A DNA stretch of 4,635 nucleotides from a virus (Duplodnaviria > Heunggongvirae > Uroviricota > Caudoviricetes). Location of the stretch: the IMG/VR virus record IMGVR_UViG_2675903254_000011. One strand, written 5' to 3'. This document shows, one piece after another, positions 1-4,635 of this stretch. Made by a program: the position numbers and the translations under genes. The notes under the pieces were generated by a model. It did no database searches and was not told where the DNA came from. It saw nothing but the letters and a program-made list of their open reading frames with translations. The stretch's first letter is position 1; each line of letters begins with the position of its first letter.

Positions 1-446
1 GTCACCCAGTTACCGTTACGCTGCAACTGAATCAGCAGGCGGACGGATGCCGGGTTACGGTCACCCTGTGAGGTGGTCTCCAACAGTGACTGCACCCCGA
101 AGGTGACCCGCAGGCGGTCAATGTTCGCGGATGTAATGGTGCGCGTTACCGGCTTTGCCTTCGTCACTTCCACGCCCAGTCCGGTTTCAGCTCCGGATGA
201 CTCAAAACCTTCCGGCGGTGTCTGCTCCTGCTCCCCGGCGCGCCAGACCGCTGTCACACCATGTATCACAGGATTACCGTCCGTGTCCGTCAGCGGGGTT
301 TTGTTCACCAGAATACTCTGCAGCCCCTTCACCGGACCTTCCACCGGTCCCTCACCGATGGCATCAATCACGCTCATCATCTGCGTGGACTTAAGATTGT
401 CCTTTGCCTCAACCGGCGTGTGCGCCTTGCCGCCACCTTTACCCAC
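1..446 (-). CDS. J: Tail tip / central tail fiber (host specificity) protein J, N-terminal part; 3' end lies beyond the left window edge
   Basis: My minus-strand translation from GTG at 446..444 reads (M)GKGGGKAHTPVEAKDNLKSTQMMSVIDAIGEGPVEGPVKGLQSILVNKTPLTDTDGNPVIHGVTAVWRAGEQEQTPPEGFESSGAETGLGVEVTKAKPVTRTITSANIDRLRVTFGVQSLLETTSQGDRNPASVRLLIQLQRNGNWVT with no stop to position 1. This closely resembles the lambda gpJ N-terminus as I recall it (MGKGSSKGHTPREAKDNLKSTQLLSVIDAISEGPIEGPV...RLRFTFGVQALVETTSKGDRNP). A Shine-Dalgarno-like AGGAGAGGGGGA lies at 451..462. It is absent from the ORF track because it has no stop inside the window. Confidence 0.85.
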   Translation of the reverse strand, partial: MGKGGGKAHTPVEAKDNLKSTQMMSVIDAIGEGPVEGPVKGLQSILVNKTPLTDTDGNPVIHGVTAVWRAGEQEQTPPEGFESSGAETGLGVEVTKAKPVTRTITSANIDRLRVTFGVQSLLETTSQGDRNPASVRLLIQLQRNGNWV

Positions 447-486
447 TCTGTCCCCCTCTCCTGTCTGATGTCTGAATCTGTTTATG

Positions 487-521
487 CCCCAAAAACGACA
501 GGCACCCCGGAGGGTGCCTGT
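487..521 (-). terminator. Intrinsic-terminator-like hairpin on the minus strand, ~40 nt upstream of the J start
   Basis: Perfect 10-bp stem (plus 498..507 acaggcaccc pairs with 512..521 gggtgcctgt) with a 4-nt loop. On the minus strand it is followed directly by CGTTTTTGGGG (plus 487..497). There is no U-tract on the plus-strand side, so it is oriented for minus-strand transcripts. Confidence 0.55.
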
Positions 522-554
522 GTCATGACGGAATAAAATTTCTGAATTTCTTCA

Positions 555-659
555 CATTTTCTGTACGCCCCCGTGGCAGATATCATTCCCGGGCGTTACA
601 GTTTTTTCGGGCCAATAAAAACAAAACCCCCTGTGGTTAATCTTCATTTTCTGTTCCCG
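555..659. repeat. Imperfect direct repeat units in the I-J spacer core
   Basis: Exact 10-mer cattttctgt at 555..564 and 646..655. CCCCC(T)GTGG at 568..576 and 627..636. TTCCCG at 586..591 and 654..659. Read directly from the sequence. Confidence 0.35.
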
Positions 660-690
660 CAGCCTTCGGTCACTGCGGGATTTTTTCGCT
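655..690 (+). terminator. Intrinsic-terminator-like hairpin on the plus strand, abutting the 3' end of gene I
   Basis: 8-bp GC-rich stem (655..662 tcccgcag pairs with 673..680 ctgcggga). The loop ccttcggtca contains a C-UUCG-G tetraloop-like motif. It is followed on the plus strand by TTTTTT (681..686) then CGCTTTT. On the minus strand the hairpin is followed by ACAGAAAATG, with no U-tract, so it is plus-oriented. Confidence 0.55.
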
Positions 691-691
691 T

Positions 692-1176
692 TTATGCCTG
701 CCGCCCGATAACCACCACCTTCCCGTCACCGCCTTCATCACGGGTACTGATGTCCTGGGAGATTCGCCGTGAGCCAACCAGCATTTCACCGTAAGGCACC
801 GGCATCGGGTTCCCCTGAGCAATCATGTTGTCCAGTGAGGAAAAATACGTGTTCTGTCTGCCGTTATCCGTTGCGCGGTAATCCGGTGTTTTTGCCTTCG
901 GGGCCAGCATCTGTGCCACACCACCCAGTATCATGCTGGCACCCAGTGAAAACAGCATCGTGGTGGCAGAAAAACCGCCGGCACTCAGCGCTGCACCCCA
1001 GGCTGCCATCGATGCTCCGGCCGTGAAGAAAGAGCCCACGATGGCTGCCGCCCCCAGCACAATCTGCAGTCCACCTTTTCCGGCCCCGGCCAGTCGCGGC
1101 AAAGTTGTAAATCCCCGTGAAGGCAGATACGTGCCAGTGGCGGTGACGCCAGGCTGAATGCGTTCGTCGTTGCCAT
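692..1176 (-). pseudogene. I: Tail assembly protein I, disrupted: N-terminal 24 codons in one frame, C-terminal domain in another, apparent internal deletion of ~187 nt
   Basis: The ATG at 1176..1174 (SD-like GGGAGAGG upstream) opens MATTNAFSLASPPLARICLHGDLQ, matching the recalled lambda gpI N-terminus (MAATHTLPLASPGMARICLYGDLQ...). After LQ the frame reads unrelated sequence to a stop at 985. A different minus frame (track ORF 692..1102, open from 1201) encodes LPRLAGAGKGGLQIVLGAAAIVGSFFTAGASMAAWGAA...NTYFSSLDNMIAQGN...GEMLVGSRRISQDISTRDEGGDGKVVVIGRQA, matching the recalled gpI C-terminal domain. ATG-to-stop is 485 nt here against 672 nt in lambda. Confidence 0.65.
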
Positions 1177-1817
1177 TTTTCGGAATACCTCTCCCGTTTA
1201 CTCAGTTGTTCAGGCAGATGGTGAAGCAGCTCACCGTTGCCGCAGTATATGGCGGCATGATTGGCCACCGATGCGCCAAAGCAGCACAGCAGGATATCGC
1301 CAGGCTGTGCGGAAGGCAGGGAAATCCTGTAAAAACCAGTCGCCTCCATATTGTCCAGGTACAGGTTCTGACCATTGCGCCACCAGTCATCCTCACGCTC
1401 AAAATCCGGCATATCAATTCCCGCCAGATGGTATGCATCCCGGAACAGCGTGTAACAGTCCGTCACCCCGTGCTCAAAGCGCCGTCCTGTCAGATGTGGC
1501 ACACAGCGGAATTTATGAATTTCCCCCCGGCAGACCAGCCACCAGGACAGTGCACTTTTTATCTGCAGCCGCCGGTCGGCCTCGCTCAGCCAGGGCAGAC
1601 CACCGGGATGACTGTGGACCAGTGCCACAATCTCCCCCTGCATCTCTGCCCGCAGCCAGTCTTCCGGTGCAATACGAAAATACGCCTCCGGCTCTGCAGA
1701 GATATTCACACAAGGGATATACCGCTCCCCCTCCGGCGTTCTCACCACGAAGCCGCACGACTCCGCAGGCGCACACCGCCGGGCATGCGCCAGAATCGCT
1801 GATTCAGTCTGTGTCAT
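864..1817 (-). CDS. K: Tail assembly protein K (MPN/JAMM plus NlpC/P60 family) with an aberrant C-terminal extension; the K-like part ends near 1104
   Basis: The ATG at 1817..1815 opens MTQTESAILAHARRCAPAESCGFVV..., the recalled start of lambda gpK, 10 nt after the L stop. A JAMM-type motif HSHPGGLPWLSEAD is at 1575..1616, and an NlpC/P60-like Cys (GVTDCYTLF) and His (NHAAIYCG) follow. Similarity to K continues to ...WRHRHWHVSAFTGIYN (~residue 238, nt ~1104); the frame then runs through out-of-frame I sequence to the first stop at 866..864. The ORF-track start at 2078 is an upstream extension inside L and is not used. Confidence 0.8.
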   Translation of the reverse strand: MTQTESAILAHARRCAPAESCGFVVRTPEGERYIPCVNISAEPEAYFRIAPEDWLRAEMQGEIVALVHSHPGGLPWLSEADRRLQIKSALSWWLVCRGEIHKFRCVPHLTGRRFEHGVTDCYTLFRDAYHLAGIDMPDFEREDDWWRNGQNLYLDNMEATGFYRISLPSAQPGDILLCCFGASVANHAAIYCGNGELLHHLPEQLSKRERYSEKWQRRTHSAWRHRHWHVSAFTGIYNFAATGRGRKRWTADCAGGGSHRGLFLHGRSIDGSLGCSAECRRFFCHHDAVFTGCQHDTGWCGTDAGPEGKNTGLPRNG

Positions 1818-1827
1818 AAAACAGGAT

Positions 1828-2526
1828 TTACTGCGAAAGTTTATTGATGGAAAGGAAACCGCCAAAATTAGCCACCATGCCGCGCATCTCACACCCGCGC
1901 ATGCACTTGCTGCATCTGTCCTTACGGATATCGGTGGTGGGTTTATCGAACTCATCCGCCACAGCAGGACCGTTATACCCGCATTCATCTCCCCGGTAAT
2001 CCCACATACAGGTGTTCGCCAGCATGATGCGACCGGGAAACAGCGCCCCGTCCGTCTCGGTCGGTGTGGCCAGCACAAACGAGGCCGTCATGGCCGTCAG
2101 CGATGACATCTGCTCCACCACCCAGCGGTCAGTCAGCTCCTGCTCCGGGTCGGCCTCCGGATTGCCTGCCACAAAGTTCACCGCATCCAGAAAACGGGCA
2201 TACACCCGGCGGCGGACCACCGTGGCACCCACCAGGCTCTGCAAATCCTCCGCCATCCCGGTGACAAGACCGAACAGATTGGACACCGTCAGCGACGGGC
2301 GGGCACTGCTGCCCTTTCCGTTCATCTCAAAGCCACTGCCCTCAATCGGGTACGCCTGATATTGCCGCCCCTGCCAGGTCACCGGCTCCCTTTTTTCATT
2401 CAGCTCATTGCAGAAAAAATACCGCTCACCGCCCTGCACCGTCAGGTCGATTTCCCAGAGCACCACCCGCGGTGACTGCTCTGACTTAACCGACTCGTTC
2501 AGGCTTTCTTCGTGAATATCCTGCAT
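1828..2526 (-). CDS. L: Minor tail protein L
   Basis: The track ORF 1828..2553 contains MQDIHEESLNESVKSEQSPRVVLWEIDLTVQGGERYFFCNE...NFGGFLSINKLSQ, resembling recalled lambda gpL (MQDIRQETLNE...GFLSINKLSQ, 232 aa). I place the start at the ATG at 2526..2524, which overlaps the M stop in a TGATG arrangement and gives 232 aa. The ATG at 2553 is an alternative 9 codons upstream. Confidence 0.88.
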   Translation of the reverse strand: MQDIHEESLNESVKSEQSPRVVLWEIDLTVQGGERYFFCNELNEKREPVTWQGRQYQAYPIEGSGFEMNGKGSSARPSLTVSNLFGLVTGMAEDLQSLVGATVVRRRVYARFLDAVNFVAGNPEADPEQELTDRWVVEQMSSLTAMTASFVLATPTETDGALFPGRIMLANTCMWDYRGDECGYNGPAVADEFDKPTTDIRKDRCSKCMRGCEMRGMVANFGGFLSINKLSQ

Positions 2527-2867
2527 CAGTTCACCACCTGCTCTATCGTGCAACTGAAATCACTGTACCGGGCATTATCCGTGACACTCCACTCACGGCA
2601 CACAACCCTCACCGTCCGGTTATGTTTCGGCGGTCGCCACAAAAAGGCACGGTAACCACCATGCCACGATAAAAACTCTTCCAGCCAGCGCCTGGTTGAC
2701 TCATCCGTCACCCGGAACACCGCCTGAAACGTCTTCAGTTGAGGATTCAGCCCTGTGGGGCGGCGCTGTTCATAACCGTCACCAAACCGCACCCTCACCA
2801 CCGACGGCTTCTCACTCACCTGCATCCCTTCACGCGGGACCAGATGCAGCGTTTTTATCTCAGCCAC
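2526..2867 (-). CDS. M: Minor tail protein M
   Basis: 113-aa ORF: MAEIKTLHLVPREGMQVSEKPSVVRVRFGDGYEQRRPTGLN...FLWRPP...IEQVVN, resembling recalled lambda gpM (MKTFRWKVKPGMDVASVPSVRKVRFGDGY...FEQVVN, 109 aa). The start is GTG at 2867..2865, preceded by GGAGGA and overlapping the last H codons. The position matching the lambda ATG is ATA here. Confidence 0.82.
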   Translation of the reverse strand: MAEIKTLHLVPREGMQVSEKPSVVRVRFGDGYEQRRPTGLNPQLKTFQAVFRVTDESTRRWLEEFLSWHGGYRAFLWRPPKHNRTVRVVCREWSVTDNARYSDFSCTIEQVVN

Positions 2868-4635
2868 TCAGCATTCCTCCGTCACGTCGCATGGACAGCA
2901 TCACCGCCTGCACCCGCTGGTCAATCAGCTGCACAAGACTGCCTGCCGCCTCCGGCCCTATCTGGCCATTAGTCCCGTCATTCTGAATGGCGATATGGTA
3001 GACCGGGGAATACACCAGACCCGCACTGCCGTTCATACTGCCCACCGCGCGCACACCCAGCGAGCCATCCGCCGCCCGCGTCAGAGGCATAATGGCTTCA
3101 GGTCCGGCCTCCCCCATCAGCCCGGCCCCTTTTGCAAAGGCAAAGTACGTGGGCGTATCCACAATACTGTTGCTGTACGCACTCAGGTTTGCCGAGGTAT
3201 ACACGCCGCCTTTTGCATTGGCCACCGCCCCGCCCAGCCAGTCACCAATGCTGCCGAGAAATCCTCCCGCACCGGACATACCGTTTGCCGCCGTCTTAAT
3301 TCCGTTGACAATCGCGGCATTCATAAGAACTTTTGATATTTCCTGCAGCACTGATGAGGCCCAGCTGCGCCATTCCACTTTATTCCCGTTCAGCATCTCC
3401 GTGATGTTATTCACCATCCCTGAGATACCCTCCGTCGCAAGCTGTGCTGCCTGTGAGGCGTAATCGGACGCATTATCCACCCAGTTACTGAACCCCTCCT
3501 GCAGCCCTTTCTGCCAGTCCGCACGCTGCACATCCGATTCGGCATAAAAGGCTTCCTGCTCTTTCAGACGTTCACTCAGATACTGTGCATTCTGCGCCAG
3601 AGCCTGTCTGTAAAAATCCTCACCGATATCCCCGGTCTGATACTGAGACTGAAGGTCCGCATCCTTCTGGCGGAAGCTGTCGCGGATCTGCTGCAACTCC
3701 CGCATGCGTTCTCTGGCTCGTTCCCCCTGCCCGTACCCCAGCAGTTCAGCATCATTCGACGCACGCGCAGCCGCATTCTCATTCTTCAGTGTCTCTTCCC
3801 GGGATCGCAACTGTTCCCGGATTTTTTGCTGGTCAATCAGGGCCGCATTACGCAGCAGCTCCTGCTTCTGCATCTCCGTCAGGGTTTTCAGTTCGCCCTG
3901 CGCAGTCTGGTATTTCAGCTTCGCCAGCTCTGTATTCTGCCCCACCAGTGCCAGTTGCTCTTTCTGCTGCTTCAGCAGCCGGGAAAAACTGTCTTCCGCT
4001 TTTTCCGTCTCTGATTTTCCACCCCGGGATTTGGGTTTATTCGCCTCGTTATTGCGCCAGGCTTCCAGGGCATTACTGATATAACGTTGTCTCGCCTCCT
4101 GATACGGATCACCCACAAAACCGAGGTCATCCGCCGCATACCCCAGCCGGACACGCTCTTTTTCTTCCCCTTTCAGTCTGGACAGGGCCAGCTCACGCTC
4201 TGTTTTTGTCAGGGCACTCTGCTGTTTATCATCCAGAGTGGCCTGTGGCAGCCGTAACGGCACATTCACCAGTCCCTGCCGCTGCTGAAGCAGTTCATTA
4301 CCCAGCCCCAGCAGACGGTTGAATTCCGTATGCTGACCATTCATAACCAGCATGGACTGGTACACCTTATTCTGCTCTGCCGCCTGCTGACGAATTAACG
4401 CCACACGACGGTCTTCCAGCCCGGCAAGCACATCCTGAATGGACTGCGCTTTTTCCTGCATCTGTGCCAGACGGGACTGCTCAACGGCAAGCTGCTCTGT
4501 TGCCTGAGCAAGCCCTTCCGTTACGGTCTTCACCGAGGTCAGATGGTTTATCATGAATCCGTCACCGGTCGTCCAGCCCGGGTTCGCCAGAACATACTGA
4601 TATCCTGCGATTTTTTCCTGCAGGGATTTCACCCG
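2860..4635 (-). CDS. H: Tail tape measure protein H, C-terminal ~590 aa; 5' end lies beyond the right window edge
   Basis: A continuous minus-strand frame runs from the window edge to TGA at 2862..2860. It encodes a long Q/E/R/K/L-rich predicted helical region followed by a Gly/Ala-rich hydrophobic segment (GMSGAGGFLGSIGDWLGGAVANAKGG) and a C-terminal tail, as is typical of tape measure proteins. It sits immediately upstream of M-L-K-I-J as in lambda. The track ORF starts at an internal GTG (4632); the frame stays open to 4635. Confidence 0.88.
   Translation of the reverse strand, partial: RVKSLQEKIAGYQYVLANPGWTTGDGFMINHLTSVKTVTEGLAQATEQLAVEQSRLAQMQEKAQSIQDVLAGLEDRRVALIRQQAAEQNKVYQSMLVMNGQHTEFNRLLGLGNELLQQRQGLVNVPLRLPQATLDDKQQSALTKTERELALSRLKGEEKERVRLGYAADDLGFVGDPYQEARQRYISNALEAWRNNEANKPKSRGGKSETEKAEDSFSRLLKQQKEQLALVGQNTELAKLKYQTAQGELKTLTEMQKQELLRNAALIDQQKIREQLRSREETLKNENAAARASNDAELLGYGQGERARERMRELQQIRDSFRQKDADLQSQYQTGDIGEDFYRQALAQNAQYLSERLKEQEAFYAESDVQRADWQKGLQEGFSNWVDNASDYASQAAQLATEGISGMVNNITEMLNGNKVEWRSWASSVLQEISKVLMNAAIVNGIKTAANGMSGAGGFLGSIGDWLGGAVANAKGGVYTSANLSAYSNSIVDTPTYFAFAKGAGLMGEAGPEAIMPLTRAADGSLGVRAVGSMNGSAGLVYSPVYHIAIQNDGTNGQIGPEAAGSLVQLIDQRVQAVMLSMRRDGGMLSG

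Follow-up and report, generated by a model that had tools for sequence, protein, structure and literature searches.

Has the lambda-type tail-tip module carried by this contig lost the end of its K gene and the N-terminal core of its I gene, or is the apparent loss a product of how the contig was put together? The window -- the whole stretch of DNA that was analysed, 4,635 bp -- is the entire contig LOFJ01000112.1 (L003) of draft assembly GCA_001608005.1, an accession for which a literature search returned no match. The module lies on its minus strand in the order H'-M-L-K-I-J', with K and I seemingly joined out of frame. An earlier note on this DNA had taken the join for a frameshifting deletion of ~185 nt that would make the tail-tip module defective, like that of a cryptic prophage, or else for an assembly indel. 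On the evidence below, the K/I "deletion" is very probably an under-sized scaffold gap over a collapsed repeat and not a real deletion.

Sequences compared

Two relatives served as the main references: E. coli 95_0274 (L001), 99.7% identical to the window across K-I, and Stx2a_WGPS2 (L002, NC_049941), 99.2% identical over the same region. To these were added contigs from three other draft assemblies (L010, L011 and L012), two prophage copies within one complete O157:H7 genome, PV15-279 (L014 and L013), and lambda itself (L015, NC_001416). Judging from its nearest relatives, the source genome would be that of an EHEC/STEC-type E. coli. From H to M the window follows the Stx2a_WGPS2 type, and the L001-like similarity begins only at the M/L boundary, so that a mosaic joint, of a kind typical of lambdoid phages, can be placed at about position 2542; owing to this joint, whole-window identity to any single genome is only ~98%.

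K and I as they read in the window

Taken literally, K starts at an ATG at 1817 on the minus strand and stays open to a stop at 864, giving 317 aa, of which 238 are native residues and 79 form a tail; the earlier note's description of this frame is borne out in the window as given. The genuine part of K, codons 1-238 (1104..1817, minus strand), is 99.7% identical to the 247-aa K of 95_0274 and Stx2a_WGPS2, and its final 9 codons, with the stop, are inside the gap described below. Both K domains are complete in the window -- a JAB/MPN domain (PF14464, residues 3-105, 1.3e-15) and an NlpC/P60 domain (PF00877, residues 111-224, 4.1e-13), each passing the Pfam cut-offs -- and the Pfam scan of K found no match past residue 224. 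The tail (864..1101, minus strand) consists of out-of-frame I coding sequence and is spurious, having arisen because the gap is written as two bases.

I starts at an ATG at 1176 and terminates after 63 aa, while its C-terminal part, which ends at 692, lies in a different frame from both the I N-terminal end and K, much as had been reported. Alignment to the relatives and gap filling identify the genuine 5' end of I as codons 1-24 plus 1 nt (1104..1176, minus strand); by gap filling, the genuine 3' part begins with 2 nt of codon 91 and continues through codon 226 to the stop (692..1101, minus strand), a stretch in which L011 and L012 match the window at 100% identity. Neither I fragment of the window gave a match in the Pfam scan; the Lambda_tail_I domain (residues 15-97) falls inside the gap. 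The distances in the window are 1136 nt from the L stop to the I stop and 485 nt from the I ATG to the I stop. The corresponding lambda values given in the earlier note are correct at 1317 and 672 nt, as is its placing of the lambda K stop about 100 nt past the I ATG (the K/I overlap there is 103 nt).

The junction in the contig record

LOFJ01000112.1 and the reverse complement of the window are identical over 4,635 bases except at window positions 1102-1103, where the record reads "nn" and the window's minus strand shows TT and its plus strand AA. These are the only two N's in the whole contig. The K/I junction is thus undetermined sequence, and the record holds no sequenced deletion junction; the bases at 1102..1103 (no strand) are placeholders for a gap standing for ~198 nt of real sequence.

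The best megablast matches, both among phage records and among complete E. coli genomes, came in two pieces, with 1497 nt set against 1301 nt of query. Alignment to 95_0274 and Stx2a_WGPS2 placed a single 196-column gap between ...GGGGATTTACAAC and TTTGCCGCGACTGG..., the break lying at window 1104|1101 and the K stop codon within the missing stretch. The net shortfall against these 99.7%-identical relatives is therefore 196 nt rather than ~185 nt. In 95_0274, Stx2a_WGPS2 and L014 the same flanks are separated by 198 nt, that is 66 codons, in frame; since the NN placeholders are not to be counted, the length unrepresented in the window is also 198 nt, a multiple of 3. One mismatch stands directly after the 196-column gap. 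A GTG-to-TTG (Val-to-Leu) polymorphism was considered as its cause and set aside, the base in question being one of the N placeholders.

NCBI conventions do not flag two N's in a row as a gap, and these could formally represent two low-quality bases; a run is usually taken for ambiguous bases, not for a gap, as long as it has fewer than 10 N's. This, together with the continuity of the contig when it is taken literally, speaks for a real, private 196-nt deletion with two ambiguous calls at its junction, in a tail-defective, decaying prophage. K would then run on into I sequence read in the wrong frame, and I would be left without its ubiquitin-like N-terminal domain. Against it, ambiguity at exactly the two junction bases has the look of a gap rather than of a read-supported junction, and the breakpoints offer no usable microhomology. 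A microhomology-mediated deletion between GCCGC motifs, which the reference has on both sides, was tried specifically, and the window does not have the sequence of that product; once the N's had been found at the junction, the microhomology question became moot.

Distortions in the stored gene calls for LOFJ01000112.1 can be traced to the NN. K is omitted; a 124-aa ORF antisense to it is called (L003 2834-3208, minus strand, equal to window 1428-1802); and a 155-aa ORF made of an I fragment is called from an ATT start across the NN, with XX in its product (L003 3477-3944, plus strand, equal to window 692-1159).

The contig is listed in 2 samples, which may be GenBank and RefSeq entries for a single assembly; should they instead come from independent assemblies, the reading of the NN as a scaffold gap would have to be re-examined.

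Filling the gap

In a repair test, the 198 nt of a relative were put in place of the two N's. The repaired K is 247 aa long, with 1 difference from the K of 95_0274, and its stop codon falls 30 nt into the inserted stretch; the repaired I is 226 aa long, with 0 differences from the 95_0274-type I, and matches PF06805 (Lambda_tail_I) over residues 15-97 at 3.3e-15. Most probably the genome itself carries both genes whole, with a K of 247 aa and an I of 226 aa. The earlier note had held that evidence restoring an I of ~223 aa and a K of ~246 aa would speak against its deletion, and gap filling restores, in substance, just such a pair. Its figure for K agrees with the relatives, at 247 aa, and not with the lambda RefSeq annotation, at 199 aa.

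With two N's at the junction, 198 nt missing in frame, and both genes recovered when the gap is filled, the picture of a defective tail-tip module in a cryptic prophage has no support. The assembly indel that the same note had offered as its second choice was essentially right in pointing to an assembly artefact, though the artefact is a scaffold gap of under-estimated length and not a sequencing indel.

The junction in other genomes

A 40-mer centred on the junction was searched with megablast; because the program requires a 28-mer, this probe can match only sequences with the same join. It had 0 matches in 5,426 complete E. coli genomes and 0 in 50,697 phage records. A junction 32-mer likewise had no match in the GTDB species-representative genomes, IMG/VR or the JGI metagenomes, and an exact-protein look-up of the 317-aa K read-through product found nothing on record.

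These searches bear on the possibility that the window shows a genuine alternative K-I architecture, in which a 317-aa K is made together with a truncated, internally started I, or I is reached by programmed frameshifting. The 317-aa frame is indeed open, and so is the frame of the I C-terminal part upstream of the junction, as such an arrangement would have it. But the K extension is out-of-frame I sequence with no family match, neither an intact phage nor any other genome of the collections searched shows the arrangement, and the TTG "start" of the 136-aa ORF that would serve as the internally started I includes a placeholder base, where the relatives have GTG (Val91 of I). As the junction bases are N's, this architecture is effectively refuted, and we give it next to no credence. 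The same lack of the junction in any other genome of any collection searched also counts against a real deletion and, with the H', M, L and J' frames all open, against the defective prophage of the earlier note.

Repeat structure around the gap

EHEC/STEC-type genomes carry many lambdoid prophages with near-identical repeated tail genes. In EHEC-type strains the missing piece is found at up to 11 places per genome, and the missing piece and each 198-nt flank at up to 11-13 places per genome. PV15-279 provides the clearest view: there both flanks match the window at 100% identity and stand exactly 198 nt apart. When its two prophage copies L014 and L013 are aligned, 56 sites differ in columns 73-710, within K; columns 711-937 (227 nt) are identical, and differences resume at 938. 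The gap of the window corresponds to columns 715-912 and so lies wholly within this 227-nt identical block.

In each of the three other draft assemblies a contig (L010-L012) opens 2-4 nt upstream of the window's right-hand breakpoint, and two of the three match the window at 100% identity from their starts onward. Coincident contig starts of this kind at the right-hand breakpoint are the signature of a branch point in the assembly graph. The left breakpoint is only 4 nt past the last SNP that distinguishes the PV15-279 copies, where one would look for a simple de Bruijn unitig to run further, so that the exact contig ends do not follow from this picture.

For the real deletion, these comparisons are awkward: without the N's the missing stretch is exactly 66 codons and coincides with an exact intragenomic repeat, the contigs of other assemblies break at the same spot, and the neighbouring genes are all intact. 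In its favour, EHEC genomes often carry defective lambdoid prophages, and several relatives have an IS66-family insertion in the adjacent I-J spacer, so that lesions do gather in this module. On balance a real deletion is very unlikely.

A probable scaffold gap over a collapsed repeat

The events behind the favoured explanation, a scaffold gap over a collapsed repeat, would have run as follows. A stretch of ~200 nt, comprising the end of K and the Lambda_tail_I domain of I, would be identical among prophages resident in the same genome while its flanks differ, and for that reason the assembler would have broken off at K/I, closing one contig at ...GATTTACAAC and opening the next at TGCCGCGACTGG... 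A scaffolder would then have linked the two contigs through read pairs with a minimal gap of two N's, ~198 nt being actually absent; scaffolders write a minimal run of N's when the estimated gap is near zero. In the window, finally, the two N's stand as plus-strand A's, which makes an in-frame gap look like a frameshifting deletion of 196 nt. Two steps here we infer: the writing of the N's by a scaffolder, and a repeat structure in the source genome like that of its relatives.

The case shares these features with other scaffold gaps over collapsed repeats: N's stand exactly between the two blocks, every near-identical complete genome holds an extra stretch of fixed length at that place, this stretch is an exact multi-copy repeat at which other assemblies also break, and the contig is just 4.6 kb of multi-copy prophage sequence. 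It differs from the usual scaffold gap in having 2 N's only, which is shorter than the recognised gap length, and in that these were replaced in the window by ordinary bases, which masked the gap.

A related artefact would be a chimeric misjoin of two prophage copies, in which the left and right flanks were never truly adjacent. Both flanks are multi-copy and the contig is a short one from a repeat region, as this would entail; in PV15-279 and the Z-series O157:H7 genomes, however, the flanks (99.6-100% identity) are found in one prophage, 198 nt apart, and their adjacency in complete genomes makes the linkage itself plausible. The chance of a misjoin is accordingly very slim, and were it true it would still be an assembly artefact and not a biological deletion.

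There is no evidence, then, of broken K or I genes: the feature that had been reported is not real, and nothing about it is novel. It carries little biological weight, there being no sign of damage to the tail-tip genes of the prophage. In draft contigs, short runs of N's shown as ordinary bases can give rise to convincing false frameshift deletions; because N runs mimic deletions in this way, sequence scans should keep or flag the positions of N's.

Relationships to lambda and the Stx phages

The gene order H-M-L-K-I-J is the same in lambda (NC_001416, K 14276-14875, I 14773-15444) as in the window. As in lambda, K has a JAB/MPN and an NlpC/P60 domain, I (gap filled) combines an N-terminal Lambda_tail_I domain with a conserved C-terminal part, and in the relatives I starts ~103 nt before the K stop, as annotated for both NC_049941 and lambda. 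Unlike in lambda, K is 247 aa here, with the gap filled, and in the relatives, against 199 aa annotated for lambda; I is 226 aa (gap filled) against 223 aa, and the I-J spacer is 244 nt long against 60 nt. The end of K and the N-terminal domain of I, both present in lambda, are unrepresented in LOFJ01000112.1.

The Stx phages and O157:H7 prophages, including Stx2a_WGPS2 (NC_049941), the Stx1a phage LC645428 and others, share 99.2-99.7% identity with K-I of the window, and in the Stx-converting lambdoid prophages of O157:H7 and other EHEC the flanks and the spacer are as in the window. The difference is that these Stx-converting relatives all contain the 198-nt stretch and have K and I intact. 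With its gap allowed for, the module is nothing out of the ordinary: it belongs to the lambda K/I tail-tip assembly system known from Stx-converting and other lambdoid prophages of EHEC.

In lambda, the first ~45 residues of the 247-aa form of K (MTQTESAILAHARRCAPAESCGFVV...) are encoded just upstream of the annotated K, in another frame, and it is for this reason that the RefSeq K has only 199 aa. The lambda reference has one base fewer than the window, GAGGC-TATTTCCG as against GAGGCGTATTTTCG, in the region L015 1133-1290 (lambda 14132-14289), and this one-base difference leaves the annotated K without the beginning of its JAB domain. Either the laboratory lambda truly carries a frameshift here, or its sequence contains an old error.

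The start of I is annotated inconsistently. PGAP begins it right after the K stop, giving 193 aa (L001 4824-5405, L013 927-1508, L014 929-1510), while the phage RefSeq entry (L002 3725-4405) gives 226 aa from an ATG 103 nt inside K, as in lambda.

Neighbouring genes and the I-J spacer

All four genes around K and I -- H', M, L and J' -- are open frames on the minus strand of the window. The tape measure gene H is represented by its 3' part (2860..4635), which is open to the contig end and matches PF06120 and PF09718. M (2526..2867, 113 aa) is intact, its GTG start overlapping the H stop. A lesion of the M start codon, with ATA replacing ATG, was considered and rejected, since Stx2a_WGPS2 has the identical sequence here and is annotated with the upstream GTG as its start. 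L (1828..2526, 232 aa) is also intact, with a match to PF05100; its exact protein is on record, and a look-up of that protein traced the window to LOFJ01000112.1. The 5' part of J (1..447) begins with a GTG at 447 and is open to the contig end; the call in the record carries PF24801.

The 244-nt I-J spacer (448..691, minus strand) is outside the artefact. It contains a terminator-like hairpin running from 521 to 498, with a stem of 10 bp that includes 7 G-C pairs and is followed by TTTTT, ~50 nt upstream of the J start; a strong hairpin of the intrinsic-terminator type thus sits inside what is expected to be a single late operon. The Rfam scan of the window, the spacer included, matched no RNA family. 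The folding of the spacer is stronger than that of shuffled controls (z = -3.1).

The IS66-like element ISEc22 is found in this spacer in Stx2a_WGPS2 (L002 4663-6998), in PV15-279 (L014 from 1768) and in F3113 (NZ_CP038374.1), which suggests that the I-J spacer may be a tolerated or preferred insertion site.
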